DNA from: a virus
DNA length: 46,266 bases
Strand: one strand, 5' to 3'
Virus record (IMG/VR): IMGVR_UViG_3300033145_003126
Span: 1 to 46,266 of that record
Made by a program: the position numbers and the translations under genes. Positions 1 to 41,661 of the stretch are shown here, in pieces; the stretch's first letter is position 1; the number at the start of each line of letters is the position of its first letter. Below the pieces are notes generated by a model, which saw only the letters and a list, made by a program, of their open reading frames with translations, was not told the DNA's origin and ran no database searches.

Positions 1-114
1 CCCTGCAACACGCTTAACAATATTAAAAACTCCAGTGATAGTCCTTATTGCCTTATCTAAAAAAGCCCCTAAATTTTGCTGTATAATAGCCTTATTAACT
101 TTGAACCAATCTGT
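1..114. repeat. Terminal direct repeat, copy 1 (circular-assembly overlap or terminal redundancy)
   Basis: Bases 1-114 are identical base for base to 46153-46266. The repeat lies inside one continuous minus-strand reading frame. Confidence 0.95.
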
Positions 115-831
115 AAATAATTTGACCATAGGAGTTATCTTTTTCATCAACCTGGTTCCAATGGCACTACTTATTCCTTTGATTACCATCATAACTCGTA
201 AAAGCTCATCATTGAAATCCGCAGCAGCCGCAGTGGCATCATTGTCAATAATGAATCCTAATTCTCTGGCTTCCTCTCTCTGCTTCCTCAAGGCTTCACT
301 TCCCTGTTGGATAGCAATTAACAGATCGCCGCTGATACCTAATTTCTGAGCAAACTCCAGTCTCTCTGCCTGAGTGCTTAATCGGGAAATGGCATCTGCT
401 ACATTATCCAGCATAACATCTGCTTCTTTAAGCCTTCCATTGGCATCTGTTACTGATATGCCCAAGATGCCAAAAACTTCTACTCCAGCACCTAACCCTC
501 TTGATGCTTCTGAAGAGATTCTGGCAAGGTTCTCCAAAGAGGTGTTCATGGAGTCAATTGAGCCACCATTGAGCTCTGCCACATAACCTAATTCTTGAAG
601 AGCTTTGACATCAATCCCAGTCCTTTGGGAAAATTTGCCAAGCTCATCATTAGATTCAGCTACCTTTTTTGTGAAGGCAAATATAGCAGCTCCAGCAGCA
701 GCAGCTCCAGCCACTACAACAGTTAATCCTTTTGCAGCAGAATCAATAAGACCATCAAACTTTTCAATGGTATCTTCATCAAAGTCAAAGGTCAATTTAG
801 TTATAAGGTTCTCAATTACAGTATCTGCCAT
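1..831 (-). CDS. Tail tape measure protein, N-terminal 277 codons (gene crosses the circular junction)
   Basis: The minus frame is open from the ATG at 831-829 to the window edge. It is absent from the ORF track only because it has no in-window stop. My translation is MADTVIENLITKLTFDFDEDTIEKFDGLIDSAAKGLTVVVAGAAAAGAAIFAFTKKVAESNDELGKFSQRTGIDVKALQELGYVAELNGGSIDSMNTSLENLARISSEASRGLGAG..., which looks like a tape-measure core. The gene sits directly after the chaperone pair. Codon phase at base 1 matches the phase at 46153. Confidence 0.85.
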   Translation of the reverse strand, partial: MADTVIENLITKLTFDFDEDTIEKFDGLIDSAAKGLTVVVAGAAAAGAAIFAFTKKVAESNDELGKFSQRTGIDVKALQELGYVAELNGGSIDSMNTSLENLARISSEASRGLGAGVEVFGILGISVTDANGRLKEADVMLDNVADAISRLSTQAERLEFAQKLGISGDLLIAIQQGSEALRKQREEARELGFIIDNDATAAAADFNDELLRVMMVIKGISSAIGTRLMKKITPMVKLFTDWFKVNKAIIQQNLGAFLDKAIRTITGVFNIVKRVAG

Positions 832-833
832 GG

Positions 834-1405
834 TTATCCTTTTTTGTTCTGAAGATAAATCTGTTCTTCCTGCAAGTCAAGTACTTCACTGAGATAATAA
901 GCATCTGCTAAGCTGTAGACTGTTTTCAATTCATGGAGGGTTGCCACCCCTCCATTAATGAGTCGGGCAATAAAGGGATCAACATTCAGCTTTCTTGGGC
1001 CAGAGGTTGATCTCCCCCGGTGGTGTGCAAACTTGACCCTAATGATTCCCCCAATGAGAAATTTGCCTCCATGATAAAGCCTACCACCTTCCACATCTCA
1101 AAAGGCTTGCCTGCAAAATGAGTTGCAAAATCTACAACTTTTGGATTATCACCTTCTTTAGTGAATATCCCTTTTTCAAATAAAGATAAGATGAGAGTGT
1201 TGACTGCCTCATCATCAAAATTCTCCATCAGCTTAGGAATCAAAAGCTTCAACTTTTCTTGGATGGAAGTCTTTTGGTCCATAAGGGCCAAAGAACTTGG
1301 CCCCAATATTTTTATCAATTTTGTCTGAACTTTTAAAGCTCGTATAGCATCCATTTGTGTGACCAGATAGGTAGTGTTACCTATGGCTTTATTTTTCTGT
1401 TCCAT
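834..1405 (-). CDS. Tail assembly chaperone, long product made by -1 programmed frameshift
   Basis: The overlapping ORF 834..1094 is in the -1 frame relative to 986..1405. It has only a GTG start and no obvious RBS. A canonical slippery heptamer lies in the overlap. The -1 frame ends 2 nt before the tape-measure ATG. Confidence 0.65.
986..1405 (-). CDS. Tail assembly chaperone, short in-frame product
   Basis: A 139-aa ORF between the tube and tape-measure genes, the conserved position of the chaperone pair in contractile and non-contractile tails. Confidence 0.7.
   Translation of the reverse strand: MEQKNKAIGNTTYLVTQMDAIRALKVQTKLIKILGPSSLALMDQKTSIQEKLKLLIPKLMENFDDEAVNTLILSLFEKGIFTKEGDNPKVVDFATHFAGKPFEMWKVVGFIMEANFSLGESLGSSLHTTGGDQPLAQES
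1058..1064 (-). other. Slippery heptamer A_AAT_TTC (X_XXY_YYZ) for -1 ribosomal frameshifting
   Basis: The minus strand reads GCA AAT TTC TCA in the zero frame of 986..1405. Slipping back one base gives AAA TTT CTC ATT, which is exactly the frame of ORF 834..1094 (..GKFLIGGII..). Confidence 0.6.
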
Positions 1406-1414
1406 GAAGCTCCT

Positions 1415-1837
1415 TTATACAATAGCAGGGCTGAAGAAATCACCCCGGAATACCCAATCCATTGAATTAACATTTTGCCCTCTTACAACAGAAGGGTATT
1501 TTTGGATCCAGGCATTGTTGATGACAAAAGTCTCACCAGTTTCTTTATCTTCAATTACCAAAGGAGCCACCCCAGTACCAGCAGTCCGGTCTACATTATA
1601 CAGGGCAGTTAACTCCTTATTGCTACCAGAATTTTGAAGAAGTTTTACAGTCACAGTACAGCGGTTATCATTTGACTGAGACCTTACCACATCCCCTTTG
1701 GCCCCAGCCATATCATTGAATTGATCTGTTTCAAGATCAATAGTGACAACATCATCCCCTTCAGCATATCCCTGAATCTCCAGGATACCAAAGATAACAT
1801 TGACATTTGAGAATGAAAAAGTTTTAAATTCAGGCAT
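1415..1837 (-). CDS. Tail tube protein (DUF3277-like pattern)
   Basis: A 140-aa ORF immediately downstream of the sheath gene. The sequence FSFSNVNVIFGILEIQGYAEGDDVVTI...VKLLQNSGSNKELTALY fits my memory of the tube family that pairs with DUF3383-type sheaths. Confidence 0.7.
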   Translation of the reverse strand: MPEFKTFSFSNVNVIFGILEIQGYAEGDDVVTIDLETDQFNDMAGAKGDVVRSQSNDNRCTVTVKLLQNSGSNKELTALYNVDRTAGTGVAPLVIEDKETGETFVINNAWIQKYPSVVRGQNVNSMDWVFRGDFFSPAIV

Positions 1838-1864: not shown

Positions 1865-3349
1865 TTATATGAATACAGTCCCACGAACCACAATTTTATT
1901 TATGCCACCCTGAAGTTCTGCAATGAAAGTGCCCTCAGGAAGCAAACGATCATTTCTGTCAGACTGACTTACTTCAGACCTTTTTGGGAATGAAGTGATG
2001 ACTGACCCTTCCACCAGGATGCCCTGTTTTACTCCATACTCATCCAATCTGCTTTTCAAACGGGTGTCTACCATAGTTATGCCAGCATTGGTGAATGGGA
2101 TGATATCTTTTTCAACAAGAAGAGATAACAGCCCCTCTTCAGTTCTGGCTTGGAGAAAATCAATATTGCGAATGATATCAATAAACTCCCCCTCTTTGTC
2201 TGCATTTTTACCACCACCCATGGTGCCTAAATAAACAAATATTGATCCAAGTGTGGCAGTATACACATTGGCATTAACCCCTGATGCAGCAGTCTTTTGG
2301 GCTTCAGTCAGAGATACTGCAGGAATGGAAACTTCTGCCCCTTCAGGAATGCCAGCCAGAGTCTTAAAGGCCCAGTTAGTTGATCCCAAGTCTTTGGGAA
2401 GCTGTTGACCCATCCAAGAGGTATCAGGATAAAGAGTATCATTATCATGATAAATAACTGCTGATCTGGCATAGTTTAAATTCTTCAGATAATAGACAAA
2501 AGTTGATTCACTTCCTTCAACAAGGGTGTTGGCATCATTGGTTGCAATCAAAAACATTTTTCTCCGGCTTTCAATAGCATCTGCCATATCTTCAGTAACA
2601 GTATCATCTCTGAATTTTTTCAAAGCTCCCATAGCATACCAATCAGTATTAACTGCTTCAATGGCATCTATGGCAACAGAAAAATCTTCAGCTATCTGTC
2701 CTTGAGAAAGGATTGATCCACCCAAGTTGGTGGCACTTTTAATAACATCACCATCCAGATAATCCTCACCGCTGATGTCTGTGCCTGCTGGTGTTCCTAT
2801 TGTTTCAAGAAGAGATATTGTGGATGCTGCTCCAGTAGTGCCGCTGTTTATATTGAATCGGTTGACCAGATAATAACAGTCACCGTTGACCCCCAGAGCA
2901 GTATCAATTACAGTAGCAACCCCAGCCATGCTGGTTATTGAAGAGAAATCCAGGCCAGTTAACTCCACAGCTCCACCATCTATATCAACAGAAAATGCAC
3001 CATCAGATATTCCTTGCCATACTGATAAAGTGGTCTCAGGGGAGTCTCCGCACTCCAAGAGAGCAGCAATTGCAGCATCCGCATATCTTCCGAACTGAAG
3101 TTCATCTGGCTGATTTATTAGGAATGGGTCTTGATAAAAGAAGGCATCAGCTGCCAAAGACTCTTCTGACCCATCTCCAAAAAAAACATCAACAGCAGCA
3201 GCTGTAGTAAAACTTCTGTTCCTTCTTGAAGTGGAAAGTAGATTAGAATCAGTAATCATCATCAGGATTCCAAAACCAGCTTCAGACACTCTTGGTGTAT
3301 CCTTTTGAATCTCCACATCTACAAATCTTTTAATCGGTCTTATTGCCAT
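1865..3349 (-). CDS. Contractile tail sheath protein (DUF3383-like pattern)
   Basis: A 494-aa ORF directly upstream of the tube, chaperone and tape-measure genes. Size and synteny are typical of a sheath. Confidence 0.75.
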   Translation of the reverse strand: MAIRPIKRFVDVEIQKDTPRVSEAGFGILMMITDSNLLSTSRRNRSFTTAAAVDVFFGDGSEESLAADAFFYQDPFLINQPDELQFGRYADAAIAALLECGDSPETTLSVWQGISDGAFSVDIDGGAVELTGLDFSSITSMAGVATVIDTALGVNGDCYYLVNRFNINSGTTGAASTISLLETIGTPAGTDISGEDYLDGDVIKSATNLGGSILSQGQIAEDFSVAIDAIEAVNTDWYAMGALKKFRDDTVTEDMADAIESRRKMFLIATNDANTLVEGSESTFVYYLKNLNYARSAVIYHDNDTLYPDTSWMGQQLPKDLGSTNWAFKTLAGIPEGAEVSIPAVSLTEAQKTAASGVNANVYTATLGSIFVYLGTMGGGKNADKEGEFIDIIRNIDFLQARTEEGLLSLLVEKDIIPFTNAGITMVDTRLKSRLDEYGVKQGILVEGSVITSFPKRSEVSQSDRNDRLLPEGTFIAELQGGINKIVVRGTVFI

Positions 3350-3358
3350 CTTGTCTCC

Positions 3359-3886
3359 TTATGGTTTCTCAATTGTGGTAGTAGTTCCATCCAGCTCATT
3401 TGTTATTTCGACTTTCTGAATGGTCTCTATATTCTCTTCATCCAAAGACCTTATAAAAAAGAAGCAATCAAACTGTGCTCTTCCTTCAGTTTTTTTGTTA
3501 ATTACTTCTGGGATTTCATTCACCTCCCCAGCTCTATGTAAGCCAAGACCTGCAGCATAAAGTTGATCAGTAACAGTTACCCTTGATAAACTATCTCTCA
3601 ATTTGGTGGCAAGAGTAAAAGCATCAAGCTTTGCAATATCATCACGATAAATATTGATGCTGAGAAAAACATCATATGGAGTAGAATAATCAATATCAAT
3701 AGATTCATCATCCAAAAGAGTGGCTTCTGATTCTTCTTGCCCAATAGGAATGGCTTGTGAAACATCAACAATGATATATTGTCCAGCTGGTCTTGGGGCA
3801 TTAGTAGGGGTAAAAATCGTTTCAATACTGGATACCCCTAAAACCCAAACCCTGAGTGCATCCTCTATCTGTTTAATATTAAGCAT
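3359..3886 (-). CDS. Neck / tail-terminator-like protein (tentative)
   Basis: A 175-aa ORF between the head-tail connector genes and the sheath. The call rests on position only. Confidence 0.4.
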   Translation of the reverse strand: MLNIKQIEDALRVWVLGVSSIETIFTPTNAPRPAGQYIIVDVSQAIPIGQEESEATLLDDESIDIDYSTPYDVFLSINIYRDDIAKLDAFTLATKLRDSLSRVTVTDQLYAAGLGLHRAGEVNEIPEVINKKTEGRAQFDCFFFIRSLDEENIETIQKVEITNELDGTTTTIEKP

Positions 3887-3955
3887 ATCTTATATACCCT
3901 GCCCCTTAGTATAGCCCAGTCCTATTTAATCGAACCTACACCTGTATTAAGCACC

Positions 3956-4306
3956 CTAATTAGTCCTTATGGCAATGGCTTTATGGTATCCCCCAATATT
4001 TCTATGGGCAACATTATAGACAAGCCAAGTATTCCCATCATAATTTATGACATCACCTGTGTTTGTAACTCCTATCTGGGGCACTAATTTGAATGTGGTA
4101 TGAATTTTGATCCCTTCCTCTGTTCTATCTCCTTCAGGTAATACCTTTAAATCATCAGGTGTAGCATCCTGTATAACCCCTGTAAAAGATATAGAGGCAG
4201 AACTGGACACCCACCGGCCTGACACATAACTACCGCTGACTCTGGTGCCAGTTATAGTCTGAAGCCATCCATCAAAAGCATCTGACACATCATTAAAATT
4301 TTCCAT
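3956..4306 (-). CDS. Head-tail joining / head-closure protein (tentative)
   Basis: A 116-aa ORF with a TAATG overlap to the upstream gene. Its size and position match small beta-barrel head-closure proteins. Confidence 0.4.
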   Translation of the reverse strand: MENFNDVSDAFDGWLQTITGTRVSGSYVSGRWVSSSASISFTGVIQDATPDDLKVLPEGDRTEEGIKIHTTFKLVPQIGVTNTGDVINYDGNTWLVYNVAHRNIGGYHKAIAIRTN

Positions 4307-4755
4307 TATCTATTCACCTCATATGTGATAGAGTTCTTCATCTGGCCAGTATCTATAAGCGGGTTGCTTGATCCTTTTCGGGCAATTGTCTCAGGAGTGT
4401 TTGGGGGGTCAGATATTGATACGATTTTTTTTGTTATTAAATCAGACATGAACTCCCCTAATAAGCCAAGCCCAGTTTCTACTTTCATGTTTCCTTTTAC
4501 AATTTGGCCCAACAACTTTTTCTGGAGGGCAATGATATTTTTTTTCTTGCCTTGGATAGTGCTTCTCATAAATGATCTTTCTGGCAGAGTTGCTGTTCCA
4601 TATTCATGGGCAAATCCAATCCCAGCAACTGTTATGTCTCCAGAAGGATGCTCACCAGCATCTATAATCCCAACATCAACAGTCCCAGGGATTTTGAGCC
4701 TATCTTTCACACCCTCAACACCACCATTTATTTTTTTTCTTGTAAATTTAGACAC
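4306..4755 (-). CDS. Head-tail connector, HK97 gp10-like / virion morphogenesis family (tentative)
   Basis: A 149-aa ORF. The C-terminal NPLIDTGQMKNSITYEV resembles the PLxDTGxL..S motif of this family. Confidence 0.45.
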   Translation of the reverse strand: MSKFTRKKINGGVEGVKDRLKIPGTVDVGIIDAGEHPSGDITVAGIGFAHEYGTATLPERSFMRSTIQGKKKNIIALQKKLLGQIVKGNMKVETGLGLLGEFMSDLITKKIVSISDPPNTPETIARKGSSNPLIDTGQMKNSITYEVNR

Positions 4756-5110
4756 TGAATGCTGGCACTCCTAATGTTTTTCTCAAAGTTAAATATCGTT
4801 GCCCATATGTAGTAGAAGCATAATATGCATCACTTTCATCATCAGGGGTAGCATTAGTATAGGCAACAGATGCTCCATCTACAGTCTTGCTGGCAATAGG
4901 GCCAGAAGATGTCACTGATCCAACTTCACTTTTGTTAGCCAGAGCCAGATAATGGGCAGTTAAATAAGACACCCCCATATCATATTTTGTATCCCAATAA
5001 GTTTCATTGAGAATAATAATAGCATCAGCAAGGAATATATCAATTCTTGCATCCAGCACAGCATCAAACTCAGGGAATCTAATTTTAAATGAAGTTGCAT
5101 CAATAGACAT
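4748..5110 (-). CDS. Head-tail adaptor (DUF4054-like pattern)
   Basis: A 120-aa ORF. FKIRFPEFDAV...YLTAHYLALA...TTYGQRYLTLRK matches the pattern I recall for DUF4054 connector proteins. Confidence 0.55.
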   Translation of the reverse strand: MSIDATSFKIRFPEFDAVLDARIDIFLADAIIILNETYWDTKYDMGVSYLTAHYLALANKSEVGSVTSSGPIASKTVDGASVAYTNATPDDESDAYYASTTYGQRYLTLRKTLGVPAFSV

Positions 5111-6603: not shown

Positions 6604-8514
6604 TTAAGATACAGCAGCCGTTGGTGTTCCTTCTACAAGCCAGTTTGTACCATCAGATATAAGCACAGCAGAATCAGAACCATCAAAGGTGATGATAGTT
6701 CCATCCAGGAATGATGCTGGGGTGATTACCTGATCCCCACCATCAACCAGCATTTTCATACTGACTCGTTGACCAGAAAAACCTGCTGCAAGTCCCCCGG
6801 TAGATGCCCCAAGAGTGGAATCAAAAATGAATAAATCTACATCAAGAGCCATGGCTGCAGTTGTTAGTGCAGTAATAGTTACAATTGCCAGCCCTTCACG
6901 AGCAATTACTTTCCAGGATGAGCCAGAAAATAAAAGGGTAAAAGAATTACCAGCTTCTGTAAGCCGTAATGTTGCTCCAACAGCAAGGCTGGCAGGAGTG
7001 ATAACTACATCCCCACCATCTACTGCCAGAATAATATTCATCACCTGGCCTTCTGTACCGGCTGCGAGAGTTGCTGTGGTGGCTCCCAGAGTGGTATCAA
7101 AGGATACTACTTTTGCAGTCAATGGGATTGCCCCAGAGGTAGCTGTGATGCTAACCATATCAGTATCAAGTTCAATACCGATTGAAGAAATAATTTTCCA
7201 TGCTGAATCTTCAAAAATCAGCTCACAGGTATCACCTACATCATTAAAGGCAATAGTGGTACCATCAGTGAGATTAGCAGGAGTCACTACTTGATCCCCA
7301 CCATCTGTTATCATCTTCAGGATTTTTCTTTGACCATCCACTCCATCAGCAAGAGTTGCTGTAGAAGTGCCAGCTGTAGTATCAAAGAGGGATGTTTCAG
7401 TCAGGAGGGATATGGCCCCACTTGTTGCTACAATAGTATTAGCAGCAGGAGCCACTACACCTTGAGCAACTATATTCCAAGAACCATCTGCAAATTTTAA
7501 GGTTGCAGTATCCCCAACATCATTGAAAGTGATAGTGGTACCAACCAGAAGATTGGCAGGGGTCAGCACCTGAGCTCCCCCATCAACTATCATGATAAGT
7601 GTCATTTCCTGACCTTCTATGCCATCTGCAAGTGTTGAAGTAGAGGCACCCAGAGTAGTATCAAAAAGAACTACCCCAGAAGTCAAGGCAATGGCACCAG
7701 AAGTCGCAGTGACTTCATTGACTGTAGAATTGATGCCCAACTCAGATAACAGAGTCCAGGAACCATCTGTGAAGATGAGCTGGCAGGTATCAAAGGCATC
7801 ATTGAAAGTAATGGTAGTTCCATTGGCAAAATTGGCTGGGGTAACAACAGCATTACCACCATCAACCAGCATTACCAGGATTTTACGTTGGCCTTCAACT
7901 CCATCAGCAAGGCTGGCAGCCATGGCACCAAGAGTAGTATCCACATAAGTAATCTGGGTATCAATCCCAACCACTGCAGTAGTGGCTGTGATGGTCTCAG
8001 AGCTATCAGGAGCCAAAATGGTTCCATAACCAGAGGCATTCAGACGTACTTTTGCAATTCCACCTGCTGCTGTAGTAGTTTCAAATGTGGCACCTGTAAC
8101 AACATCAGCATCCCCACCACTGGTATCTTTACGAAACCGGCCAACCACATCAAGCGGTGAAGTATCAGCAGTATGCCTGAAATAAACCAAGTCACCAGGA
8201 ACAACCGATTGTTCTACATATACCCAGATTTCACCAAAGTCAATAATATTCATTTCACGGTACTGGGCATACAAGTGGAGGTCACTTGAATTTTCTGCCC
8301 ACGCTGAAGTCATCTCTGTGATCCCAATAAAGCTCTGGCCTGTTGTTGTAGGCAATTTAGCCTGATTGTCTGCAGTTCCTCTGACAACTGCCCGGCCAAA
8401 TGGAATATCTCCAGTTTGGGCAACCTTAGATATGATGTTGATAAGGCCAAGATTGGCTCTCTGGCCTTCATAAGCAGCATCATGTTCTGCTTCATAAGAG
8501 GTTTGTACTGGCAT
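6604..8514 (-). CDS. Capsid cement/decoration protein fused to five tandem ~92-aa repeat domains
   Basis: A 636-aa ORF. The N-terminal ~170 aa (..IPFGRAVVRG...FIGITE...GEIWVYVEQSVVPGDLVYF...) resembles BPP-1-type structural cement proteins. The gene lies between the scaffold-like and capsid genes. Residues 174-636 are five tandem repeats. Confidence 0.6.
   Translation of the reverse strand: MPVQTSYEAEHDAAYEGQRANLGLINIISKVAQTGDIPFGRAVVRGTADNQAKLPTTTGQSFIGITEMTSAWAENSSDLHLYAQYREMNIIDFGEIWVYVEQSVVPGDLVYFRHTADTSPLDVVGRFRKDTSGGDADVVTGATFETTTAAGGIAKVRLNASGYGTILAPDSSETITATTAVVGIDTQITYVDTTLGAMAASLADGVEGQRKILVMLVDGGNAVVTPANFANGTTITFNDAFDTCQLIFTDGSWTLLSELGINSTVNEVTATSGAIALTSGVVLFDTTLGASTSTLADGIEGQEMTLIMIVDGGAQVLTPANLLVGTTITFNDVGDTATLKFADGSWNIVAQGVVAPAANTIVATSGAISLLTETSLFDTTAGTSTATLADGVDGQRKILKMITDGGDQVVTPANLTDGTTIAFNDVGDTCELIFEDSAWKIISSIGIELDTDMVSITATSGAIPLTAKVVSFDTTLGATTATLAAGTEGQVMNIILAVDGGDVVITPASLAVGATLRLTEAGNSFTLLFSGSSWKVIAREGLAIVTITALTTAAMALDVDLFIFDSTLGASTGGLAAGFSGQRVSMKMLVDGGDQVITPASFLDGTIITFDGSDSAVLISDGTNWLVEGTPTAAVS
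6607..7995 (-). repeat. Five in-frame tandem coding repeats (273-285 nt each): 7717-7995, 7438-7716, 7153-7437, 6880-7152, 6607-6879
   Basis: The protein-level consensus is ATSGAI.L.....FDTTLGA.T.TLADG.EGQ....M.VDGGD.V.TPAN...GTTI.FNDVGDT..L.F.DGSW, present five times. The copies are diverged at DNA level. Confidence 0.9.
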
Positions 8515-9740: not shown

Positions 9741-10556
9741 TCACCTGCAGTTTATATCAGTTATCCCAGGCTGGATAAATTTCCCACAAGTCTTTGACCA
9801 TGCTCCTTTTTTAAGAAGGTATTGGATGCCATCCAATTCATCATGACATTTCCTTACTCTTTCATCATCAGAGGTGTTGAATATACCCTCTTTGATGCCA
9901 AGACTTTCTGATCTTCTAAGGGATATTTGGGAATTAATAGTCTGGACTTCATTTCTGGCAATGGTTTTAATCCTATTGGCCAGTTTGCTATTTGCTCCAG
10001 TCTTGGCAATTATCTCTTTCTGGATGGTGGAGTATCTGGCCCCACTTACTACTCCATTATTGACAATAGTCTCTACTTGTTTCAGATACTCTTCTGGCAG
10101 AGACTTAATCAGGCTTACATTTTTATTCACACTCAGGGCAGTAAAGTCTTCAAGCCCTTCAGCAGTGATTACACTTCCTAAATCAACTCCAGTTGCTCTG
10201 GCAATAGTCCTATCAAACTTATTTTTGTTAGCAGTTCCTACCTTATTAACCATAGCAGAAGCAGTAGTTTGAGCAAAGCTGGCAGTAGCAGTTCCAGTGA
10301 ATAGACCATTTAGCCTTCTGAAGATTACTCCAAGCTGATCCCCAATCCCATCATAAAGAGGGAGGATGCTCTTTAAATTGAATTGAGAATCAGCCACATA
10401 GGATGATTCCTGGGTCTTTAAATAAGCAAGCACTTCTTTTCTTACAGAAGCAATAAGCACCTTGCCTAGTTTATTGAGCTGTTTCCTATATGCTATTTCA
10501 ATGCCCTTTTGGCTTTTTACAGGAGCAGCTATTTTTGTTTTTTTCTTTTTAACCAT
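9741..10556 (-). CDS. Head morphogenesis protein, Mu F / SPP1 gp7-like
   Basis: TIARNEVQTINS...DDERVRKCHDELDG is typical of Phage_Mu_F. I trimmed the start to MVKKKK (ATG at 10556) rather than the track's 10580. Confidence 0.7.
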   Translation of the reverse strand: MVKKKKTKIAAPVKSQKGIEIAYRKQLNKLGKVLIASVRKEVLAYLKTQESSYVADSQFNLKSILPLYDGIGDQLGVIFRRLNGLFTGTATASFAQTTASAMVNKVGTANKNKFDRTIARATGVDLGSVITAEGLEDFTALSVNKNVSLIKSLPEEYLKQVETIVNNGVVSGARYSTIQKEIIAKTGANSKLANRIKTIARNEVQTINSQISLRRSESLGIKEGIFNTSDDERVRKCHDELDGIQYLLKKGAWSKTCGKFIQPGITDINCR

Positions 10557-11355
10557 TTTTCCTGATTTCCAAATCCACAAATCTTTTTATTGGCCTTGCT
10601 GCTATTCCAGCGATAACAGGGGGCAGGAACCCATAATTGCCAATCCTAATTTCATCAATTTCATCAGCAGTAAGTATATCTTTGAAGATAACAAATTCAT
10701 CAAGATTGCCAGTTAATGGATTCACATCATACTGGAAGGACTTGTAACAGCCAAAAGTAATTTCTCCAGTAGCTGCAAAACCTGTATTCCCAAGATTGGC
10801 AGTATAGTCAACTCCATGGATAGCTCCAACTGTATCATCCCAAATTCTTATTAACATTGCTTCGGTTCCACCATCATATACTACACCAATATGATACCAT
10901 CTTCCTGCTTGGAGTACTGACTGGTGCACTGCTGTATTGTAAGTTGTTCCATTATATGTTGCAAGAAAACTTACATGTCCACCATCATTTATTTGAAGGG
11001 AAAATGACATCTGATCTGGATAACCTTTATGAATAATTTCATAAAAGATACCGTTAATCCTTGTATCCAAATAAAGCCAAGTACAAAACGAAATTACTAC
11101 ACCACTGCCACTTTTAAAAGGAAAACCAACATCGAGATTTGCATCTGCTATTTCACACCATTCAGTATTTGCACCTTCAAATTCTATACTTGCTGAGCCT
11201 TCTTTATACTTTACCAAATCTGCTTCTGGTACTTCCACTCCACCAGTACTATCTAATGTAAGAGTATTCCCACCGATAGAATCTGTTACCAAAGCGCTGC
11301 TTTCAAATTTATATAAAGCAACACAGTTGGAATCCTCTGAGAAATTATTTGCCAT
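10549..11355 (-). CDS. LamG / concanavalin-A-like lectin-fold protein with a sheath-N-terminus-like C-terminal tail
   Basis: A 268-aa ORF. CVALYKFESSALVTDSIGGNTLT ... RWYHIGVVYDG ... GNLDEFVIFKDILTADEI is the classic Laminin_G_3 pattern. The last 17 aa, AARPIKRFVDLEIRKNG, match the sheath N-terminus MAIRPIKRFVDVEIQKD. Confidence 0.7.
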   Translation of the reverse strand: MANNFSEDSNCVALYKFESSALVTDSIGGNTLTLDSTGGVEVPEADLVKYKEGSASIEFEGANTEWCEIADANLDVGFPFKSGSGVVISFCTWLYLDTRINGIFYEIIHKGYPDQMSFSLQINDGGHVSFLATYNGTTYNTAVHQSVLQAGRWYHIGVVYDGGTEAMLIRIWDDTVGAIHGVDYTANLGNTGFAATGEITFGCYKSFQYDVNPLTGNLDEFVIFKDILTADEIDEIRIGNYGFLPPVIAGIAARPIKRFVDLEIRKNG

Positions 11356-12650
11356 TATTCCTCTTCACCAAATTCCAGCTCCTCTTCTTTCAATTCCTCT
11401 TCAACTCTATTCTCATCAATGGAAACATATGTCCCATTCTCTGCTAATTGAGCCATAGAATCAGAAGGCTTGATGATATCTTGATCAAGATAAATTTGAT
11501 CCCTTTGGCCATTCTTTAGATCAACCTCTGCTTGCTCTATTTCAGTCAATTGTTTGAGAGGTTTAAATTCATATTCAAATGCATCTTCCCCAGGCAGAGT
11601 TGAAGCCAGTATAATAGAATCCATCCAATCAATAGGAGGTCGCAAATCATTCTCCTGAAGGGATTGGACAATATCATAATAGTTAAGCATATCAGACTCC
11701 CCGGTGGCATTCTGACCAGCTGGAGAAATGCCTAATAGCCTGGTTACAGGGATATTACTGGCCCCAGCAACTTTCTGTATGAACCTATCATCAATGTCTG
11801 GGAGTGTGGTGAAGGTGTTAGTTTTCTTATCATATTCATCTTCTTTATCCAGGGCAATCCCATTAATAATACTTTTCATTTCATGAGCTAATTTCAACCG
11901 CTTGATTACAAGGTCATCCCTGCCTTCTGCTACCAGAGAATTGAGCCCATTAATGCGGTATACATCTACATTGGACTCATATATCAGATTATTGATGGAT
12001 TGAGATACTATCTGGCTGTCTGATATAGGCTCATACAGAGTAGTAAAGATGGAACTACCCCAGTAGTTCTGCTGTTCCAATTCCATAATGGTCTTTACAT
12101 CCCCATTAATCTTGTATAATCGGGTATGATGAATCCTTTGCCCATCTCTTGATACTGTATAATATTCTGGTTTGCCAAAATTGCTTGATAAGATATTCCG
12201 GTCTATTGCATCTGGATATATATTGTATCTATCTAATATGATGAAACTCTTCAGTGACCCTTCTTTTATATTATCAATCTCCAGTGGTTCTTCTTGATCA
12301 TCACCTTCTATAATAGAAAGTATTACAGCCCCACCAAATACTCTTGCCCATTTAGATGCTAAATTAACAGCCCCTTTAACATTAAATTCACTCAGAGCAG
12401 TTTCTATTTCCTTCTTTTTATCAGCATCTGTGATAAGAAGATTTCTCCATTTTCTGGTAGCATCATCAATAGGGATATCTACAACCTTAGCAGCCAACCA
12501 ATTATAGACATAGAGATTATGGGCTGTAATTTGGGTGATCCTTAAACCCACTTCATACAGAACATTCTTTCTTGGGTCTTTACTCCCCCCAATCCCTTTC
12601 AATATGCTTTTAAATCCATCTTTGACAAATGATATAATAGGATTTTTCAT
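11355..12650 (-). CDS. Portal protein (DUF1073-like pattern)
   Basis: A 431-aa ORF with an acidic C-terminus. ..YWGSSIF...IPVTRLLGISPAGQNATGESD.. fits DUF1073 portals. Confidence 0.75.
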   Translation of the reverse strand: MKNPIISFVKDGFKSILKGIGGSKDPRKNVLYEVGLRITQITAHNLYVYNWLAAKVVDIPIDDATRKWRNLLITDADKKKEIETALSEFNVKGAVNLASKWARVFGGAVILSIIEGDDQEEPLEIDNIKEGSLKSFIILDRYNIYPDAIDRNILSSNFGKPEYYTVSRDGQRIHHTRLYKINGDVKTIMELEQQNYWGSSIFTTLYEPISDSQIVSQSINNLIYESNVDVYRINGLNSLVAEGRDDLVIKRLKLAHEMKSIINGIALDKEDEYDKKTNTFTTLPDIDDRFIQKVAGASNIPVTRLLGISPAGQNATGESDMLNYYDIVQSLQENDLRPPIDWMDSIILASTLPGEDAFEYEFKPLKQLTEIEQAEVDLKNGQRDQIYLDQDIIKPSDSMAQLAENGTYVSIDENRVEEELKEEELEFGEEE

Positions 12651-14009: not shown

Positions 14010-15475
14010 TCTGCCTCCATAGCAGCCTTTAAAGAATTGGTTGCATTTTTATTAATGAAAGCCACCTCAATGGCAGTCATCAAGGTGTCTATATCATCAT
14101 CAAATTCCCCATTCGGGAACTCTCTTGCTTCTTTGGTAATGTTATCAACCCCTTCAACAGAGGTATATAACACAACTCTGCCAGACTCTATATAAGGGGC
14201 TGCATCCTCTGCTCTAAAGACTTTATCAGTAGACCTGGGCACCTCTATTACTTTTAAACGAAGTCTCTTCAGCTCTTGTAATAGGCCTGTTCCAGAGGAC
14301 TTATCTTCTATATACATCCCTCTTAAAGTAGGATCACCAACATTCTCTCTGGGAGTGTTGTGTTTTCTATAAAAAAGCTCAGCTTCAACTCTCAATTCTG
14401 GAGCTTCAAATTTGTCCCTCTTTTTATCAAGCAAATGGATTCGATCATCCATCCCATAACCCCAAGCCTGGAATATAGTCCAGTCATTTTGGGTCTTGGC
14501 TTTCTGGGCAGTATCTGCTGTGATGAATTTGAACTTTAAGGGTGGCACTTTCTTGCCCCAAGTCCACCATTTATCCTTAAAGATGTTGCCACCTGATACT
14601 GTGGGATTGCCTTGGTATAGAGATTCCCAACTTGCTGGGGCCATCAGTGCTTTTTTGCCTTCCAGGAACTCTTTTGATTTAAGCTCAGGGAATAATGGCT
14701 CTCCAACTTCCCTGTGTTCTTCATCCTTGGTAGCAATAGCTTGATAATTAATCAATTTGACTTTTCTGCCAATCTCTTTAAACTTATCAATCATCCTACC
14801 TATAATATCATGAGTAGTCCAACGAGTCATGATGACAATAAGACCAGCTAAATCACTGAACCTTGTATTAAAGTCATCAGTGAACCATTCCCAAATCTTT
14901 TGGCTCCAGGTAACAGATGCTGCTTGCTCTCTACCTTTTACAGCATCATCTATAACCCCAATATCAAGACTCTCTCCAGTGACCCCACCACCTGTAGTGG
15001 TATTCCTGAATTGCCCTTCAGTGACTTCTCCTTTATCATCCACAAATTCCAGATGATTAGTAGTCCTTACAGCAAGCCCCTTTTTATCACTCAGCATAGT
15101 ATCAGGAAAAATTTTTTGATACTTAGGATTGGTCATCTGTCGTTGCTGAGAGAGATTACAACGCACTCCTAATGTATCTGAATAAGAGGCATATATTGAT
15201 CTCAGTTGTGGTATCTTTCCATTCATCCAGGCAATAAAGTCCATAGCAGTCCAAGACTTGCCATGCTGAGGGGGTGTCTGTATTAAAAGTATTGGTCTCA
15301 AGCCCTTCTTATAATCAACATAAAATTGCTGTAGGTTCTTACACAGGTCAGCCATAAACCAATTGGCATAGAAGTTGTCTGGCCTCATAAACTGCCTATA
15401 AGCAAAGAAATTGACCCTGGATTTCTGAATCCACCATTCTTCTAACAGGTCTATGTCTTGGGCTGCTAAATTCAT
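14006..15475 (-). CDS. terL: Terminase large subunit
   Basis: A 489-aa ORF. It has a Walker A-like QTPPQHGKSW and a Walker B-like LDIGVIDDA. The C-terminal nuclease part carries FITADTAQK and GEFDDDIDTLM. Confidence 0.9.
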   Translation of the reverse strand: MNLAAQDIDLLEEWWIQKSRVNFFAYRQFMRPDNFYANWFMADLCKNLQQFYVDYKKGLRPILLIQTPPQHGKSWTAMDFIAWMNGKIPQLRSIYASYSDTLGVRCNLSQQRQMTNPKYQKIFPDTMLSDKKGLAVRTTNHLEFVDDKGEVTEGQFRNTTTGGGVTGESLDIGVIDDAVKGREQAASVTWSQKIWEWFTDDFNTRFSDLAGLIVIMTRWTTHDIIGRMIDKFKEIGRKVKLINYQAIATKDEEHREVGEPLFPELKSKEFLEGKKALMAPASWESLYQGNPTVSGGNIFKDKWWTWGKKVPPLKFKFITADTAQKAKTQNDWTIFQAWGYGMDDRIHLLDKKRDKFEAPELRVEAELFYRKHNTPRENVGDPTLRGMYIEDKSSGTGLLQELKRLRLKVIEVPRSTDKVFRAEDAAPYIESGRVVLYTSVEGVDNITKEAREFPNGEFDDDIDTLMTAIEVAFINKNATNSLKAAMEAD

Positions 15476-15607
15476 TTATACAAATCTCATCAACCTAAGT
15501 CTGACCTTGTAGAAAGCAACATATAATGAATCATGATTTTTGAACATCCATTTATATGTTATCCTTTTAGCTAACCAGATACCATTTTCTTTGTATTCAC
15601 CAACCAT
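15476..15607 (-). CDS. Possible 43-aa basic/aromatic micro-ORF filling the holin-terL gap
   Basis: My translation is MVGEYKENGIWLAKRITYKWMFKNHDSLYVAFYKVRLRLMRFV. The ATG lies 1 nt after the upstream stop and the TAA abuts the terL ATG. It is below the ORF-track size cutoff. Confidence 0.3.
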   Translation of the reverse strand: MVGEYKENGIWLAKRITYKWMFKNHDSLYVAFYKVRLRLMRFV

Positions 15608-18183: not shown

Positions 18184-18335
18184 AGTGTTCCATATTTAGA
18201 TTCATATACTACTTTGTTTGGCTTAAATTCTATTTCTGTATATTCATCTTTTATCCATTCAAAAGAGTATACAGTCAATGCCAGAAGAATAGCTAGCAGA
18301 AGCCATGGCCTTATAAAGCCTTCAAATTCATCCAT
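18180..18335 (-). CDS. 51-aa single-TM micro-protein
   Basis: My translation is MDEFEGFIRPWLLLAILLALTVYSFEWIKDEYTEIEFKPNKVVYESKYGTL. Its ATG lies inside the last codons of the primase gene (AAAAATGGATGA) and its stop overlaps the next ATG. It is below the track cutoff. Confidence 0.45.
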   Translation of the reverse strand: MDEFEGFIRPWLLLAILLALTVYSFEWIKDEYTEIEFKPNKVVYESKYGTL

Positions 18336-21060
18336 TTTTCTTCACTATCAACCACCTAACAATATTTGATGATCTCTTCTTTAGGGATAGGCCACCCAGT
18401 ACCATATCAACCATAGTGGAAAAGAACTTCCCAACAGTTCGGGAGTTCTTAGCCTTATTGCCCAAAGCATCAGTCAAGGCATTTCCAAGCTCTGTTTCTT
18501 CAGATTCGAAAGCTCCAAAAGCTGATTTAATTACTTCCCTGGTGGTGAATTCATCCCCATTAAAAACAGCCTGTAGTTGAGTAAGCACATCCAGCTTAGA
18601 TAATTGTAGAGGGTCATCTTTTTGGTTATTCTTTACAGCATCATTTACATCAATGCCACTTACTTTTAACAATGGCCTGCGAACAAACTGATCCCATAAT
18701 TTAAACCGGGTTGAGCCACCAACCTCCAGCATGCCCTTTCCATTGACTATGATAGATAGCAAAGCGGAAATTATCTTTTTTCGATTATCCATTGCCCATT
18801 GCCCAATATTATCTCTTTTAAACACTCTTGTGTTAGGGTCTTCCATATCAGGATTGATGGTGATAGGGTATATGCGGGTGGCAAAATCCCCCACAAATTT
18901 AATGCCATTTCCTGTGAATATCCAGATAACTGAAGATGGCACCTCTATGGTTTTATTCTCTCCAAGCTGCCTCCCGCCATATACATCATTGGACATAGCC
19001 ATAGCCAAACGGCCTGATTGGATAGTACTTCCCTGTTTAATATTATCAAATAATACACAGCTATGACCCTCTTGAAGTATAGCCAGAATGTGTTTGCCAA
19101 GTTCTTCTTCATCTTCACTCCAGGAGCTTGCAGCCACAGGCCTATTAAATACTGAATAAGAAAGTAGTTGGGCCAGGGTGGTCTTACCAGAACTCTGGAT
19201 GGGGGATACTATACCAAAACCAGGCATCCCGGTATCTCCAGCAATAGTGGGCCTTTGAATAGCAGTTAATAGAGCAGCAATTGCTACCACTCTATCTAAT
19301 TCTTCAGCAAAAGGGAACTCATCCAGAACTACCTTAGAAATATATTCATAGGCCACTTTTGGATCCATTTTAGTCACTTTAAGCTTTCGGTGGAGTAGAG
19401 TATAAAGGCCTGTGATTTTGTTGTAGCCATTCTTCTGCACTAAGTCCCATTTGTTGTCTATAAATGGGTGTTCTACTATCCCTGTGAGGGATTTAAAGTG
19501 ATTGTTGTTTGCTTCTCCTATCATATGTAGTACTCTTGTTGGGCATTCAATATCTGTTCCTGTTTCATTGGTGAAGATAACATCCTTTTCTAATCTGCCA
19601 CCAAGGGAATAGTATGGCCTCATGAAGTGTTTTATAATAGGGATTTTTGGATAATCTTTTCCAAGCTCTGCTAATTTAGTACACTGCCTGATAGTTTTTG
19701 GTATCCCCAAAGCAACACTGGCCAAGCCACCTCCCATCTTAAACACCTGGGGGTACTTTTTGGATTCAGCCAACACAGTTCCTGCTGCTTTAGACACATC
19801 CCCTCCATTGATAGCTGTACACTCCAACTCAAATACCCCTTTGGACTTTCTCTCTTCTGATTTGGCTGCTTTGGCCCTCTCTGCCTTTTCTTTATTGGCT
19901 TGTTCTTCTGCTATTTTAACAGTCTTTTTTACATCATTTACTCCAAAACCAATCTTGATCACTATCTGAGCAATAGCAGTAGTCCTATCCATTGGACTCA
20001 AATTTAATATCTTCTGAGCAAAATTGGCTTTGACTGTCAAGGTGTTCTCTTCTTTGATCCAGTATAGTACTTCCTCAAGGGTGGGATTATCCACAATCTC
20101 TACAGCACTATCCACAGACCTACCAATATCATCAAACCTATCCTGCCACCGCTTATCATTCTTTTCAGTAGAACTCATGCCCCTCTTAGCTGCGTTCATA
20201 GCCCCTTCCAGCATTTCCTTTACCGTAAGGGCAGGAACCTTCTTATTTATTAGTGAGAGAGCGAGTTTATTCAACTCTTCATGGTAGTTTTCGGCTGTTA
20301 ATATCTTTTCTACTCCAGCAGCAAGGTCATAACTATCTGAAGTACTGCTGATACCATTCCTTATTACTTTGTTAGAAGGATCAGGCACCCAGAAAAGCTC
20401 ACCCATCTTCTGGACATAACCCAGGAAGTTCTTCACTGGGTCTTCAGCTCCTTCACAGATTCTCTTCTGAATATAGATAGGCTGAGCACAATTCAGAACA
20501 CTATCATCAATGATATTGCCCCAGCCCTTCTCCTTATTATAGCCTTTTATCCAGGCCCGGATATCAAGATTGTGGACTGGAGTATTGAGCCAGAAGAAGA
20601 GATGGCACTTCAATTCTTTAGTGGTCAGACCATAAGAAGATGAATATTGATAGATATAATCTGCGGAATGGAATGGCTCAGGAAGTTGCTCTGTGATAAA
20701 GGCTTCAATATCTGGATTTTTATATCCATCAATATCTAAGCAGAACAGGCTCAAGTTCCTATCTGTTATAGTAGGTTTGAGCCCATCTTGGTGATCTGAC
20801 CTTTTCCGTCTGATCATATTCTCTTTGTCAGTTCCATCTATTATGGCTCCATGGATCATGAAGACTGAATGGTCTTGATTAGTCTGTAGAATTTCATAGG
20901 CTTGTTGGAGAGTTTTAATTGGTATTTCAAATCCTTTGAAGTACTTCCCAGCCTTGTAATTCTTTTTCAGCTCCCACTCCCCCTGCTCAAATGCAAAGGT
21001 CTTTGTGGCCACCCCTTTAAGGGGCATTAGAAAATTGAAATTATGTTCCATATGATTCAT
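18328..21060 (-). CDS. Bifunctional primase-polymerase / P-loop helicase (replication initiator)
   Basis: About 910 aa. The N-terminal prim-pol-like part carries LFCLDIDGY (DxD). The C-terminal part has Walker A SPIQSSGKTTLAQLL and Walker B CVLFDNI. I moved the start to ATG 21060 (MNHMEHN), which has the RBS AAGGAAGG and an ATGA overlap with the upstream micro-ORF. Confidence 0.8.
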   Translation of the reverse strand: MNHMEHNFNFLMPLKGVATKTFAFEQGEWELKKNYKAGKYFKGFEIPIKTLQQAYEILQTNQDHSVFMIHGAIIDGTDKENMIRRKRSDHQDGLKPTITDRNLSLFCLDIDGYKNPDIEAFITEQLPEPFHSADYIYQYSSSYGLTTKELKCHLFFWLNTPVHNLDIRAWIKGYNKEKGWGNIIDDSVLNCAQPIYIQKRICEGAEDPVKNFLGYVQKMGELFWVPDPSNKVIRNGISSTSDSYDLAAGVEKILTAENYHEELNKLALSLINKKVPALTVKEMLEGAMNAAKRGMSSTEKNDKRWQDRFDDIGRSVDSAVEIVDNPTLEEVLYWIKEENTLTVKANFAQKILNLSPMDRTTAIAQIVIKIGFGVNDVKKTVKIAEEQANKEKAERAKAAKSEERKSKGVFELECTAINGGDVSKAAGTVLAESKKYPQVFKMGGGLASVALGIPKTIRQCTKLAELGKDYPKIPIIKHFMRPYYSLGGRLEKDVIFTNETGTDIECPTRVLHMIGEANNNHFKSLTGIVEHPFIDNKWDLVQKNGYNKITGLYTLLHRKLKVTKMDPKVAYEYISKVVLDEFPFAEELDRVVAIAALLTAIQRPTIAGDTGMPGFGIVSPIQSSGKTTLAQLLSYSVFNRPVAASSWSEDEEELGKHILAILQEGHSCVLFDNIKQGSTIQSGRLAMAMSNDVYGGRQLGENKTIEVPSSVIWIFTGNGIKFVGDFATRIYPITINPDMEDPNTRVFKRDNIGQWAMDNRKKIISALLSIIVNGKGMLEVGGSTRFKLWDQFVRRPLLKVSGIDVNDAVKNNQKDDPLQLSKLDVLTQLQAVFNGDEFTTREVIKSAFGAFESEETELGNALTDALGNKAKNSRTVGKFFSTMVDMVLGGLSLKKRSSNIVRWLIVKKNG

Positions 21061-21221
21061 CCTTCCTTTCTTGGTGCTTCCCATCCATCATGAATTAAAC
21101 ATCCATCTGTCATATCCCCAATACAAGTGCAGGCTGGATCACTAATTTCTGGTGTGATTTTAATCTCTGTTATGGTAAAATTAGTTTGCCCAATATCAAT
21201 ATATACAGTTGCCTTATCCAT
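21057..21221 (-). CDS. 54-aa Cys-containing micro-ORF, leader gene of the primase operon
   Basis: My translation is MDKATVYIDIGQTNFTITEIKITPEISDPACTCIGDMTDGCLIHDGWEAPRKEG. There is an RBS (AAAGGGA) 7 nt upstream, and the stop overlaps the primase ATG. Confidence 0.4.
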   Translation of the reverse strand: MDKATVYIDIGQTNFTITEIKITPEISDPACTCIGDMTDGCLIHDGWEAPRKEG

Positions 21222-38625: not shown

Positions 38626-39342
38626 CTAATCTTTTGAACAGATAATTCCTACTTCTGCAGTTGGTCGATATGCTGACCCATGATTATGAGCAGTATCACT
38701 TCCAGTAGCCCCAGCAGTAAGAGTAGCAGTTGTAGAAGAGCCACCACCTGCCATGGTATTAGCACCACCTTCATTCCTCCAAACTTGAGTTCCATTTGTT
38801 AATGCATGAGTATGTGATGGCATTTCAGATTCTGTCAAGGCATGATCTGGTTGTGTCCAGGTTCCTGCCTGTGTCCCTCCAGTAGTATATGTTGAACCTC
38901 CTTTTACTGCCAGCAGGGAATCAGAAGGAGTGGAATCTATTGTCCAACCATCTGGAGCAGTATCTTGATAAAACCAAACCTTTGAAGTTGATTCTATTGC
39001 TGAAAATTTTTTCCAAGTTCCAGTTACATCACCAACAGGATCAACTATAGAAGAGCTTGGGCCATTATTAATTAAGCAGTGATATATTTCACCATCACTT
39101 CCAGCAGCATAGGAATCATCTGCCAGATAATCAGTTAGAGCATCATACCCTAATACTCCTTTTATATTTATTTCATTTATCCATTTATAGACATTATTCT
39201 GCCAATGGTTAAATGTCTGGAATGGTGGCTTTTCAGGGATGCCACCTGGTGCTATCCAGCCTTGCTGCTGATGAGTAGCATCTGGGACTGTACTATTGAC
39301 TTCAGTTGTATCCCAGAAAGGAAGGATGATTGGTTTTGCCAT
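38626..39342 (-). CDS. Tail fibre protein with tail-collar-like C-terminal region
   Basis: A 238-aa ORF. The N-terminal IPEKPPFQTFNHWQNNVYKWINEI is a common fibre N-terminal pattern. LTESEMPSHTHAL and DTAHNHG recall collar-type fibre tips. Confidence 0.6.
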   Translation of the reverse strand: MAKPIILPFWDTTEVNSTVPDATHQQQGWIAPGGIPEKPPFQTFNHWQNNVYKWINEINIKGVLGYDALTDYLADDSYAAGSDGEIYHCLINNGPSSSIVDPVGDVTGTWKKFSAIESTSKVWFYQDTAPDGWTIDSTPSDSLLAVKGGSTYTTGGTQAGTWTQPDHALTESEMPSHTHALTNGTQVWRNEGGANTMAGGGSSTTATLTAGATGSDTAHNHGSAYRPTAEVGIICSKD

Positions 39343-39357
39343 TTCTTTTCTCCTTTG

Positions 39358-40128: not shown

Positions 40129-40136
40129 TTTAATCC

Positions 40137-40709: not shown

Positions 40710-40721
40710 GTTTTATCCTCC

Positions 40722-41648: not shown

Positions 41649-41661
41649 TTAATTTCTCCTT

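Follow-up and report, generated by a model that had tools for sequence, protein, structure and literature searches.

A LamG lectin-fold protein ending with a copy of the tail sheath N-terminal arm, encoded between the portal and MuF genes of a myophage

The virus record IMGVR_UViG_3300033145_003126 of IMG/VR was analysed over a stretch of 46,266 nucleotides (nt), hereafter the window. An accessory gene of the window, encoding a LamG lectin-fold protein, ends with a near-verbatim copy of the N-terminal arm of the tail sheath protein encoded in the same window. The match between the two peptides is genuine and well past chance. Judging from the strand identity of the arm and its vacant socket in homologous structures, six LamG domains may dock on the neck-proximal sheath ring by strand mimicry, a reading that we hold at somewhat less than an even chance. 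The parts of the two proteins are as follows.

10549..11355, minus strand: LamG accessory open reading frame (ORF) (Laminin_G_3, ConA-like jelly roll), 268 amino acids (PF13385, AlphaFold2, Foldseek)
10636..11355, minus strand: globular LamG core, residues 1-240, ending in the family-conserved ...DEIDEIRIGNYG (AlphaFold2, homologue alignment)
10597..10635, minus strand: flexible linker from core to arm, residues 241-253, YGFLPPVIAGIAA (model confidence, homologue variability)
10558..10596, minus strand: copy of the sheath N-arm strand, RPIKRFVDLEIRK, residues 254-266, followed by just NG and the stop codon (sequence match)
1865..3349, minus strand: tail sheath protein (DUF3383, phrog_205), 494 amino acids (Pfam, PHROG)
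3302..3346, minus strand: sheath N-terminal arm, residues 2-16, AIRPIKRFVDVEIQK, strand 4 by alignment to E217 (relatives, E217 offset)
1868..1909, minus strand: sheath C-terminal arm, ...GGINKIVVRGTVFI, strand 3, the partner of the N-arm in homologous structures (kept in relatives)

The arm copy at the end of the LamG protein

The last LamG residues before the stop codon read ...GIAARPIKRFVDLEIRKNG (in fuller form ...NYGFLPPVIAGIAARPIKRFVDLEIRKNG, in short form AARPIKRFVDLEIRKNG), and the first residues of the sheath read MAIRPIKRFVDVEIQKDTP (at other lengths MAIRPIKRFVDVEIQK and MAIRPIKRFVDVEIQKDTPRVSEAGFG). Between LamG nt 10558-10602 and sheath nt 3302-3346, 12 of 15 residues were identical. 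The coordinates, sequences and identity reported by the first-pass annotation, which was made from the letters of the window, were thus reproduced, as was its statement that the two proteins share nothing else. In BLASTP of LamG against the sheath, a single common segment was obtained (12/17 identical, 16/17 positive, E 2e-5). Outside the arm no sheath homology was found in the LamG protein, i.e., BLASTP gave the terminal 17 residues alone and Pfam gave LamG alone.

The 27-residue LamG tail was compared with the six-frame translation of the window and scored 63, whereas 300 shuffled tails in the same translation gave a mean of 34.4 (standard deviation 3.2, maximum 48). The 12/15 match was the top ungapped 15-mer for any pair among the 58 ORFs of the window, and the best ungapped 15-mer in 20 shuffled proteomes reached only 8-10. 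The gapped local score of the LamG and sheath pair, also 63, ranked just fifth among all ORF pairs, so the signal lies in the density of identity and the terminus-to-terminus placement, not in the raw score. A similarity of the cement protein to the sheath with a gapped score of 84 was rejected as low-complexity and non-significant (E 0.06).

No third copy of the peptide was found in the genome, and the next-best match in the six-frame translation was at the chance level. An alternate-frame, 32-codon open frame lying over the terminase start (15399-15494, minus strand) encodes RPVRRMVDSEIQ, of which 8/12 residues are identical to the sheath arm. As a third arm copy it was discarded, because its score of 40 was equalled by 20 of the 300 shuffles.

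Laminin_G_3 (PF13385) was recognized by Pfam in residues 88-233 with 46.3 bits against a cut-off of 27.6. By AlphaFold2 with 46 homologues, residues 1-240 were predicted confidently as an all-beta jelly roll with a mean predicted local distance difference test (pLDDT) score of 90.6. In blocks the score was 88-98 up to approximately residue 240, except for residues 201-210, which gave 79. The model has the two sheets of a beta-sandwich jelly roll, and Foldseek aligned it at probability 1.0 to the HCN domain of botulinum neurotoxin (BoNT), pentraxins, CBM40 and LamG domains. CBA120 TSP2 and the Pan3 tailspike were further Foldseek neighbours, together with a large number of viral proteins annotated as LamG or 'virion structural'. 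Pfam, AlphaFold2 and Foldseek therefore agree with the LamG fold assigned before. The core, a probable glycan or adhesion module, has the conserved acidic and aromatic residues D25, W93, and D219. For a role in defence or anti-defence, there was no PADLOC match and no NCBIfam match near the cut-off.

The last approximately 28 residues of LamG were predicted as unstructured with low confidence. The linker has no secondary structure in the model, and its mean pLDDT of 72 at residues 241-250 drops to less than 50 from residue 251 onwards; this region is hypervariable among the LamG homologues. A low-confidence tail in the model is as expected of a strand that becomes ordered only upon binding.

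The sheath matched DUF3383 of Pfam with 183.8 bits, and its PDB homologues were P7-1 gp76, XM1 gp6, E217 gp31, Pa193 gp32, and the Pam3 sheath. In the N-arm of E217, residues 6-12 form main-chain hydrogen bonds and a sharp bend is located at Gly14 (PMC10329688). The alignment offset is +2, i.e., residue 29 of the window sheath corresponds to residue 27 of E217 gp31, and therefore the hydrogen-bonded strand of E217 corresponds to RFVDVEI (residues 8-14) of the window sheath, the centre of the shared 13-mer. The Gly14 bend maps to approximately K16/D17. The LamG copy spans the complete strand (RFVDxEI) and stops at the bend, two residues short of the E217 bend position, and nothing of the sheath body was copied beyond the arm. 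The copy has the sequence of strand 4 and is placed on a flexible terminal extension, i.e., at the extreme C-terminus after the low-pLDDT linker. That the peptide is a sheath arm had been proposed in the first-pass annotation, and the E217 alignment confirms it by placing the shared 13-mer on the handshake N-arm.

The neck-proximal sheath ring as a possible docking site

Sheath subunits of this family are connected by the handshake sheet. In E217 three subunits contribute to its four strands: A provides strands 1 and 2 with its C-terminal beta-turn, B provides strand 3 with its C-arm, and C provides strand 4 with its N-arm (PMC10329688). At the neck of E217, the C-terminal extension of gp29 is strand 3 of a three-stranded sheet with the hairpin of the top-ring sheath; the sheet has three strands, not four, because the terminator C-terminus supplies strand 3 alone (PMC10329688). 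In Pam3, the arms of each ring reach the preceding baseplate-side ring, and the initiator accepts the arms of ring 1 (PMC9942802). At the last ring of Pam3, beta9 of the terminator pairs with beta11-beta12 of the sheath (PMC9942802). The same arrangement was described for XM1, in which the N-terminus runs parallel to the C-terminus of the neighbour (PMC10457771). From these three structures, once the tail is complete, strand 4 of the neck-proximal ring, with its six subunits, is the sole handshake position that stays unfilled. Vacant arm slots on a terminal ring, as supposed before, are thus present in E217, Pam3 and XM1 at the neck-proximal end.

The corresponding terminator was identified next to the sheath gene.

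3359..3886, minus strand: tail/neck terminator (Phage_tail_terminator_9), 175 amino acids (Pfam; role from E217 gp29, Pam3 gp12, XM1 gp5)
3362-3424, minus strand: terminator C-terminus, IETIQKVEITNELDGTTTTIEKP, presumed strand 3 of the top ring and presumed partner of the LamG tail (clade conservation, homologous structures)

The terminator C-terminus is conserved in the clade (window and L007-L021) as IETIQK[VI]E[IV]TN..[ND]..G.T..IEKP, and a weak similarity links it to the C-arm of the sheath, GGINK[IV]V[VI]RGTVFI. From the sequences, the weak resemblance is as expected if the terminator replaces the C-arm on the top ring.

The docking model is as follows. LamG is a late accessory gene that forms an insertion at the portal-MuF junction, and its product consists of a ConA-like globular domain, a flexible linker of approximately 13 residues and a 13-residue copy of the sheath N-arm. 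In the sheath lattice of this family (E217, Pam3, XM1), the C-terminal beta-hairpin of a subunit (strands 1 and 2) is extended by a C-arm (strand 3) and an N-arm (strand 4), both from the ring above. The last neck-proximal ring has no ring above it; the terminator C-terminus gives strand 3, and position 4 is empty. The LamG tail may fill this position by beta-strand augmentation. Up to six LamG domains would then form a collar at the neck-sheath junction, in which the sheet edge is capped and the glycan or adhesion module is displayed. The sequence copy, the fold, the disordered tail, the conservation of the arm in the clade, and the accessory nature and position of the gene were shown here, and the strand formed by the peptide and its vacant socket were taken from homologous structures. 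The docking itself, the number of copies, incorporation into the virion and the binding of a ligand are inferences. The model agrees with the location of the gene in a slot for neck appendages and with its coupling to the low-copy portal gene, both of which are described below.

The gene slot, the LamG family and the origin of the tail

The LamG gene lies between two head genes.

11355..12650, minus strand: portal protein (Phage_portal_3), upstream of LamG and translationally coupled to it (Pfam, PHROG, junction sequence)
9741..10556, minus strand: MuF-like head morphogenesis protein, downstream of LamG (Pfam, PHROG)

The ATG of LamG overlaps the portal stop codon (TAATG), and the LamG stop codon overlaps the ATG of MuF (ATGGTTAA). 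The true MuF start is the ATG at 10554-10556, which is backed by the homologues in L010 and L011. No excess of promoter-like or terminator-like sites was found around the LamG gene, and its guanine-cytosine content of 0.36-0.39 equals that of the flanks, i.e., no deviant composition was detected. From these features, the LamG gene is considered to be co-transcribed and translationally coupled with the late structural genes. A frameshift fusion of LamG and MuF was considered and rejected; MuF is in the +1 frame, and no canonical slippery site was seen by eye.

In four related loci (L010, L011, L021, and L023), the portal stop codon abuts or overlaps the MuF start, so the LamG gene does interrupt a usually contiguous pair, as had been pointed out. 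It is an accessory insertion that is absent between the adjacent genes of close relatives. In another relative, L015, of which the sheath is 64% identical, a different 1-kb insert is located between portal and MuF (3841-4811) with ORFs of 61, 155, and 92 amino acids. The 92-residue product is Gp77 (Pfam E 5e-20; PDB 8jou_D), which in podophage GP4 is the immunoglobulin (Ig)-like 'fiber-tail adaptor' of the collar. The 155-residue ORF ahead of it had no matches and could be a whisker or fibre partner. The homologous collar/whisker system of Bas63 sits at the neck, and its genes are near the portal gene (portal gp3, whisker gp5) (PMC12609058). The Gp77 gene of L015 and the layout of Bas63 indicate that the portal-proximal slot is where the lineage keeps genes of neck appendages.

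Relatives of the window were collected by their sheath genes, i.e., 19 IMG/VR loci with sheaths 58-81% identical to that of the window and one at 29%, and more were added from pattern scans. No LamG gene was found in these sheath relatives. Their N-arms are strongly conserved in approximately 40 relatives as [RQE][PA]I[KT]RF[VI]D[VI]EI[RKT]K, and the consensus arm (..EIRK) fits the LamG tail better than the resident sheath does. The peptide was also scanned as the exact pattern IK[RS]F[VIM]DxEI. All 25 matches in IMG/VR were sheath N-termini except for one chance frame of 13 amino acids. The 61 matches in the JGI metagenomes were sheath N-termini and chance matches, the latter comprising short open frames as well as unrelated proteins of cellular appearance, by our reading radical-SAM/TRAM, Fic-like and HAD-like ones. 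LamG orthologues bearing the arm tail, in which co-variation with the cognate sheath could be followed, were not found in any collection searched.

In a search of 5.8 billion proteins, 47 matches including that of the window itself were obtained, leaving 46 LamG homologues, all with identity of 45% or lower. The arm tail was absent from all 46, and their tails were unrelated and variable; no LamG homologue was found in cultured phages. The alignment of the 46 homologues showed invariant D25, W93, and D219 and conserved E232-G239. The conserved core ends with ...DEIDxIRxGTYG and is followed by a Gly/Ala/Pro-rich stretch and then by a short, hypervariable C-tail, of which both the length and the sequence vary. 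Such a combination of conserved head and phage-specific tail fits a retargetable anchor, as far as the alignment suggests. The homologues occur in other phage types, i.e., siphovirus-like, SU10-like or T7-like podovirus-like, and unknown ones, usually after the capsid gene or beside neck genes. Their neighbours include Gp77 (L050 and L051), the GP4 fibre I Gp80 (L003) and an SU10 adaptor (L005). Two tandem LamG genes follow the capsid gene in L114, and LamG follows the tape measure gene in L048.

The family is unnamed and widespread, and its N-terminus is conserved as MANDFSGDxNCVALWRFE (P0002-P0047; loci L003-L006, L048-L051, and L113-L116). Several of its C-tails end in beta-strand-like or aromatic-rich residues, i.e., GQVIMIEEF, YYYANAG, and WWWRRRHN.

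At the DNA level, 11 of the 39 nt of the RPIKRFVDxEIxK region differ between LamG and its own sheath, with seven synonymous codon differences. Six of these had been listed before, and AAA/AAG is the seventh. The LamG tail is identical to the resident sheath at 28/39 nt and 11/13 residues, whereas its identity to the 5' end of the L036/L010 sheath gene is 34/39 nt; sheath arms of the relatives are identical to the resident one at 22-33/39 nt. The LamG copy agrees with the clade consensus RPIKRFVDVEIRK at 12/13 residues and thus more closely than with the resident sheath, in which R is replaced by Q. The residues at which LamG differs from the resident sheath are at positions variable among the orthologs; L stands for V/I, and R is found at the R/K/T/Q position. 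The tail is therefore not a recent duplicate of the resident gene.

The first-pass annotation had argued from the synonymous changes that the peptide is under selection in both genes and is not a recent duplication scar. The latter part stands as far as the resident sheath is concerned. The former part was weakened, because synonymous differences do not prove selection in the LamG gene and the tail may have been captured recently from the sheath of an unsampled relative. If all the differences were unconstrained, so few amino-acid changes would have P of approximately 3e-5 against the own sheath and approximately 0.009 against L036, the closest sampled allele, from which LamG differs by five nucleotides and one amino acid. 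Selection acting on the LamG arm copy is suggested by these sequence comparisons, and only suggested because the sheath lineage is itself constrained and the donor of the tail could be the sheath gene of an unsampled relative.

Several observations weigh against docking at the neck. The combination of a non-sheath body with the arm is unique, i.e., no other case was found in the 5.8 billion proteins, IMG/VR or the JGI metagenomes, and no second arm copy was found in 38 related loci (390 kb). The C-tails of the homologues were compared with the six-frame translations of their own loci in seven distinct (partial) loci, and nothing exceeded the shuffles. Mimicry of a terminus is thus no demonstrated habit of the family and was seen in the window only. 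With an unsampled sheath allele as the donor, there would be little evidence of selection. At the proposed site on the top ring, strand 3 comes from the terminator instead of the C-arm of the sheath, so the arm copy would pair with a sequence other than the partner with which it evolved, and the similarity between IQKVEITN of the terminator and INKIVVRG of the sheath C-arm is weak. In addition, the LamG body is N-terminal to the strand, whereas the sheath body is C-terminal to it.

Alternatively, the tail may be a by-product of recombination, in which the LamG cassette captured the first codons of a sheath gene, either of this phage or of a related one, by illegitimate or short-homology recombination. 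The fragment would have persisted without a docking role, and any function of LamG would be independent of it. We regard this as unlikely. The fusion is a singleton, the C-tails of the family are hypervariable and tolerate almost any sequence, and the closer DNA match to the sheath of a relative fits a recent capture from an unsampled allele. However, the fragment is in frame and in sense orientation, and it is bounded by a flexible linker on one side and by the bend of the arm on the other, i.e., it holds the whole strand and nothing more. Both gene junctions are also clean overlaps of stop and start codons. If the five differences from L036 arose in LamG, their single amino-acid change would be unlikely under neutrality, as would the pattern against the own sheath. 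A reading in which the peptide identity is incidental to a nucleic-acid element, e.g., a translation-initiation or RNA element found both in the 5' end of the sheath gene and ahead of MuF, would account for the location of the copy 5-50 nt upstream of the MuF start and of the sheath copy just after its own start. This was rejected because of the differences at third codon positions, as 28/39 nt yet 11/13 residues is a protein-level signature, and we consider it very improbable. The position relative to the start codon is also opposite in the two genes, and the relatives have no such element before MuF.

An assembly role in place of decoration of the finished virion may also be considered, in which the arm copy, for instance, caps free sheath protomers or growing ends and so limits premature or aberrant (polysheath) polymerisation, or helps to terminate or lock the sheath. 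Position 4 is open to a mimic of the N-arm in any place from which the real arm is missing, LamG is co-expressed with the late genes, and the handshake strands drive lattice assembly. Close relatives, however, build the same sheath without the gene, so it is not needed for assembly; the 240-residue lectin-fold body would be left unexplained, and the neighbour's own arm would out-compete the mimic inside the lattice. This role is fairly improbable. That a third partner, such as a chaperone or another neck or head protein, recognizes the peptide, or that LamG is anchored elsewhere, e.g., in the capsid or portal region, is quite improbable. It would suit the position of the gene between portal and MuF, the many LamG homologues directly after the major capsid gene, and the extended cement protein with five extra repeats, by which display on the head surface is in the repertoire of the phage. 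Nevertheless, the E217, Pam3 and XM1 structures describe no partner of the N-arm beyond the handshake sheet, and the genome holds no third copy of the peptide.

Known systems and the genome setting

Non-sheath proteins in the handshake sheet and neck appendages are both known; no precedent for an accessory lectin-fold protein with a near-verbatim copy of the sheath N-arm turned up in the literature searched. The docking proposed for LamG is similar to that of the terminator C-terminal strand (E217 gp29, Pam3 gp12, XM1 gp5), by which a non-sheath protein joins the handshake sheet in the same DUF3383 family. It is also similar to the sheath initiator hairpin (gp25/TssE-like; Pam3 gp21, XM1 gp15), by which a strand is donated or accepted at a sheath end. 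However, terminators and initiators are core, universally conserved proteins that mimic the C-arm or the acceptor hairpin structurally, whereas LamG is accessory and dispensable, carries a near-verbatim sequence copy of the N-arm and has no homology to either.

The location of the gene near portal and neck genes is shared with the neck appendages, i.e., T4 fibritin wac, the XM1 gp40 collar spike, the collar-whisker of Bas63/Sf14, and GP4 gp77/gp80. These optional surface parts of the head-tail junction are often assumed to help in adsorption or to strengthen the joint. Unlike in the proposed LamG docking, their attachment to adaptor, head-completion or terminator proteins is made by Ig-like or coiled-coil domains, and none was reported with a copy of the sheath arm. 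LamG gave no Pfam, PHROG or PDB match to the collar and whisker proteins (wac, XM1 gp40, Bas63, GP4 gp77/gp80).

In its jelly roll, LamG resembles ConA-like virion proteins of phages, i.e., the N-terminal domains of CBA120 TSP2, the Pan3 tailspike, and virion structural proteins of the cyanophages S-PM2 and S-TIM5 (Foldseek template modelling score of approximately 0.55-0.65). These proteins are often virion-associated and implicated in binding. The likeness is at the fold level only (10-23% identity), and those domains are built into baseplate fibres or spikes, whereas LamG is a free-standing protein that bears the sheath arm as its tail. Capsid decoration proteins, i.e., the Ig domains of T4 Hoc and extended cement proteins, are likewise dispensable adhesion-type domains displayed on the virion, but they anchor to the capsid lattice, whereas the site proposed for LamG is the handshake slot of the sheath.

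If the docking model holds, LamG would be the first accessory protein found to use a copy of the assembly strand of the sheath for its attachment to a contractile tail. Use of the handshake socket has so far been known for core proteins alone, i.e., sheath, initiator, and terminator, and the open sheet edge of the terminal sheath ring would prove to be a site at which other proteins can bind. The transfer of a widespread LamG module between unrelated virions by a change of a short tail would be explained as well. As a broader and more doubtful proposal, the N-arm strand may be a portable docking tag whose C-terminal carriers are installed on the six vacant sockets, with the LamG family as a plug-in module retargeted by a swap of the tag. 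Virion accessories would then have a mode of attachment not described before. A cargo fitted with the cognate N-arm peptide would be displayed sixfold at the neck of myophages, tailocins or extracellular contractile injection system (eCIS) particles. This engineering rule is directly testable in E217, Pam3 and XM1, of which the structures are known. If the tail is merely a scar, it would be a curiosity on how accessory phage genes are assembled from fragments.

The window is an E217/Pam3-like myophage genome, in which an E217/Pam3/PB1-type structural module was identified by Pfam and PHROG matches. On the minus strand, the genes are arranged in the order of terminase, portal, LamG, MuF, DUF2213 protease, beta-tulip cement protein, major capsid protein, and DUF4054, followed by the tail genes for the terminator, DUF3383 sheath, KPP10_Orf10 tube, and tail assembly chaperone. 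Baseplate genes of the E217 type, i.e., gp41 hub, Baseplate_J, DUF2612, and Dit-like, were found at the far end (38626-46098, minus strand), on the strand that also carries the tail genes of the near end (35-1837, minus strand). From this arrangement, the window probably represents a near-complete, circularly permuted genome of approximately 46 kb. The tape measure gene may span the window ends.

The cement protein (6604-8514, minus strand) is 636 amino acids long. It has a beta-tulip core (Phage_cement, residues 1-160) and five tandem repeats of approximately 93 residues with the motif ...TLADGVxGQ...DGGxxVxTPA...W..., in which DGG is located at residues 218, 311, 404, 499, and 591. In relatives, the core of approximately 159 residues occurs alone in L015 and L019-L023, and fewer repeats occur in others. 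The extended cement protein indicates that the phage invests heavily in surface-displayed domains.

The portal protein of L010, the closest relative, has a C-terminal extension of approximately 75 residues (approximately 3240-3480) with a zinc-ribbon/HNH-like motif (CDGCKKEKKLQAHHKDY...CQSCH), which the portal protein of the window does not have. The structural module is separated from a plus-strand block, which is probably for replication, by an ORF of 918 amino acids (18328-21084, minus strand) that matched no Pfam family at E <= 0.01.

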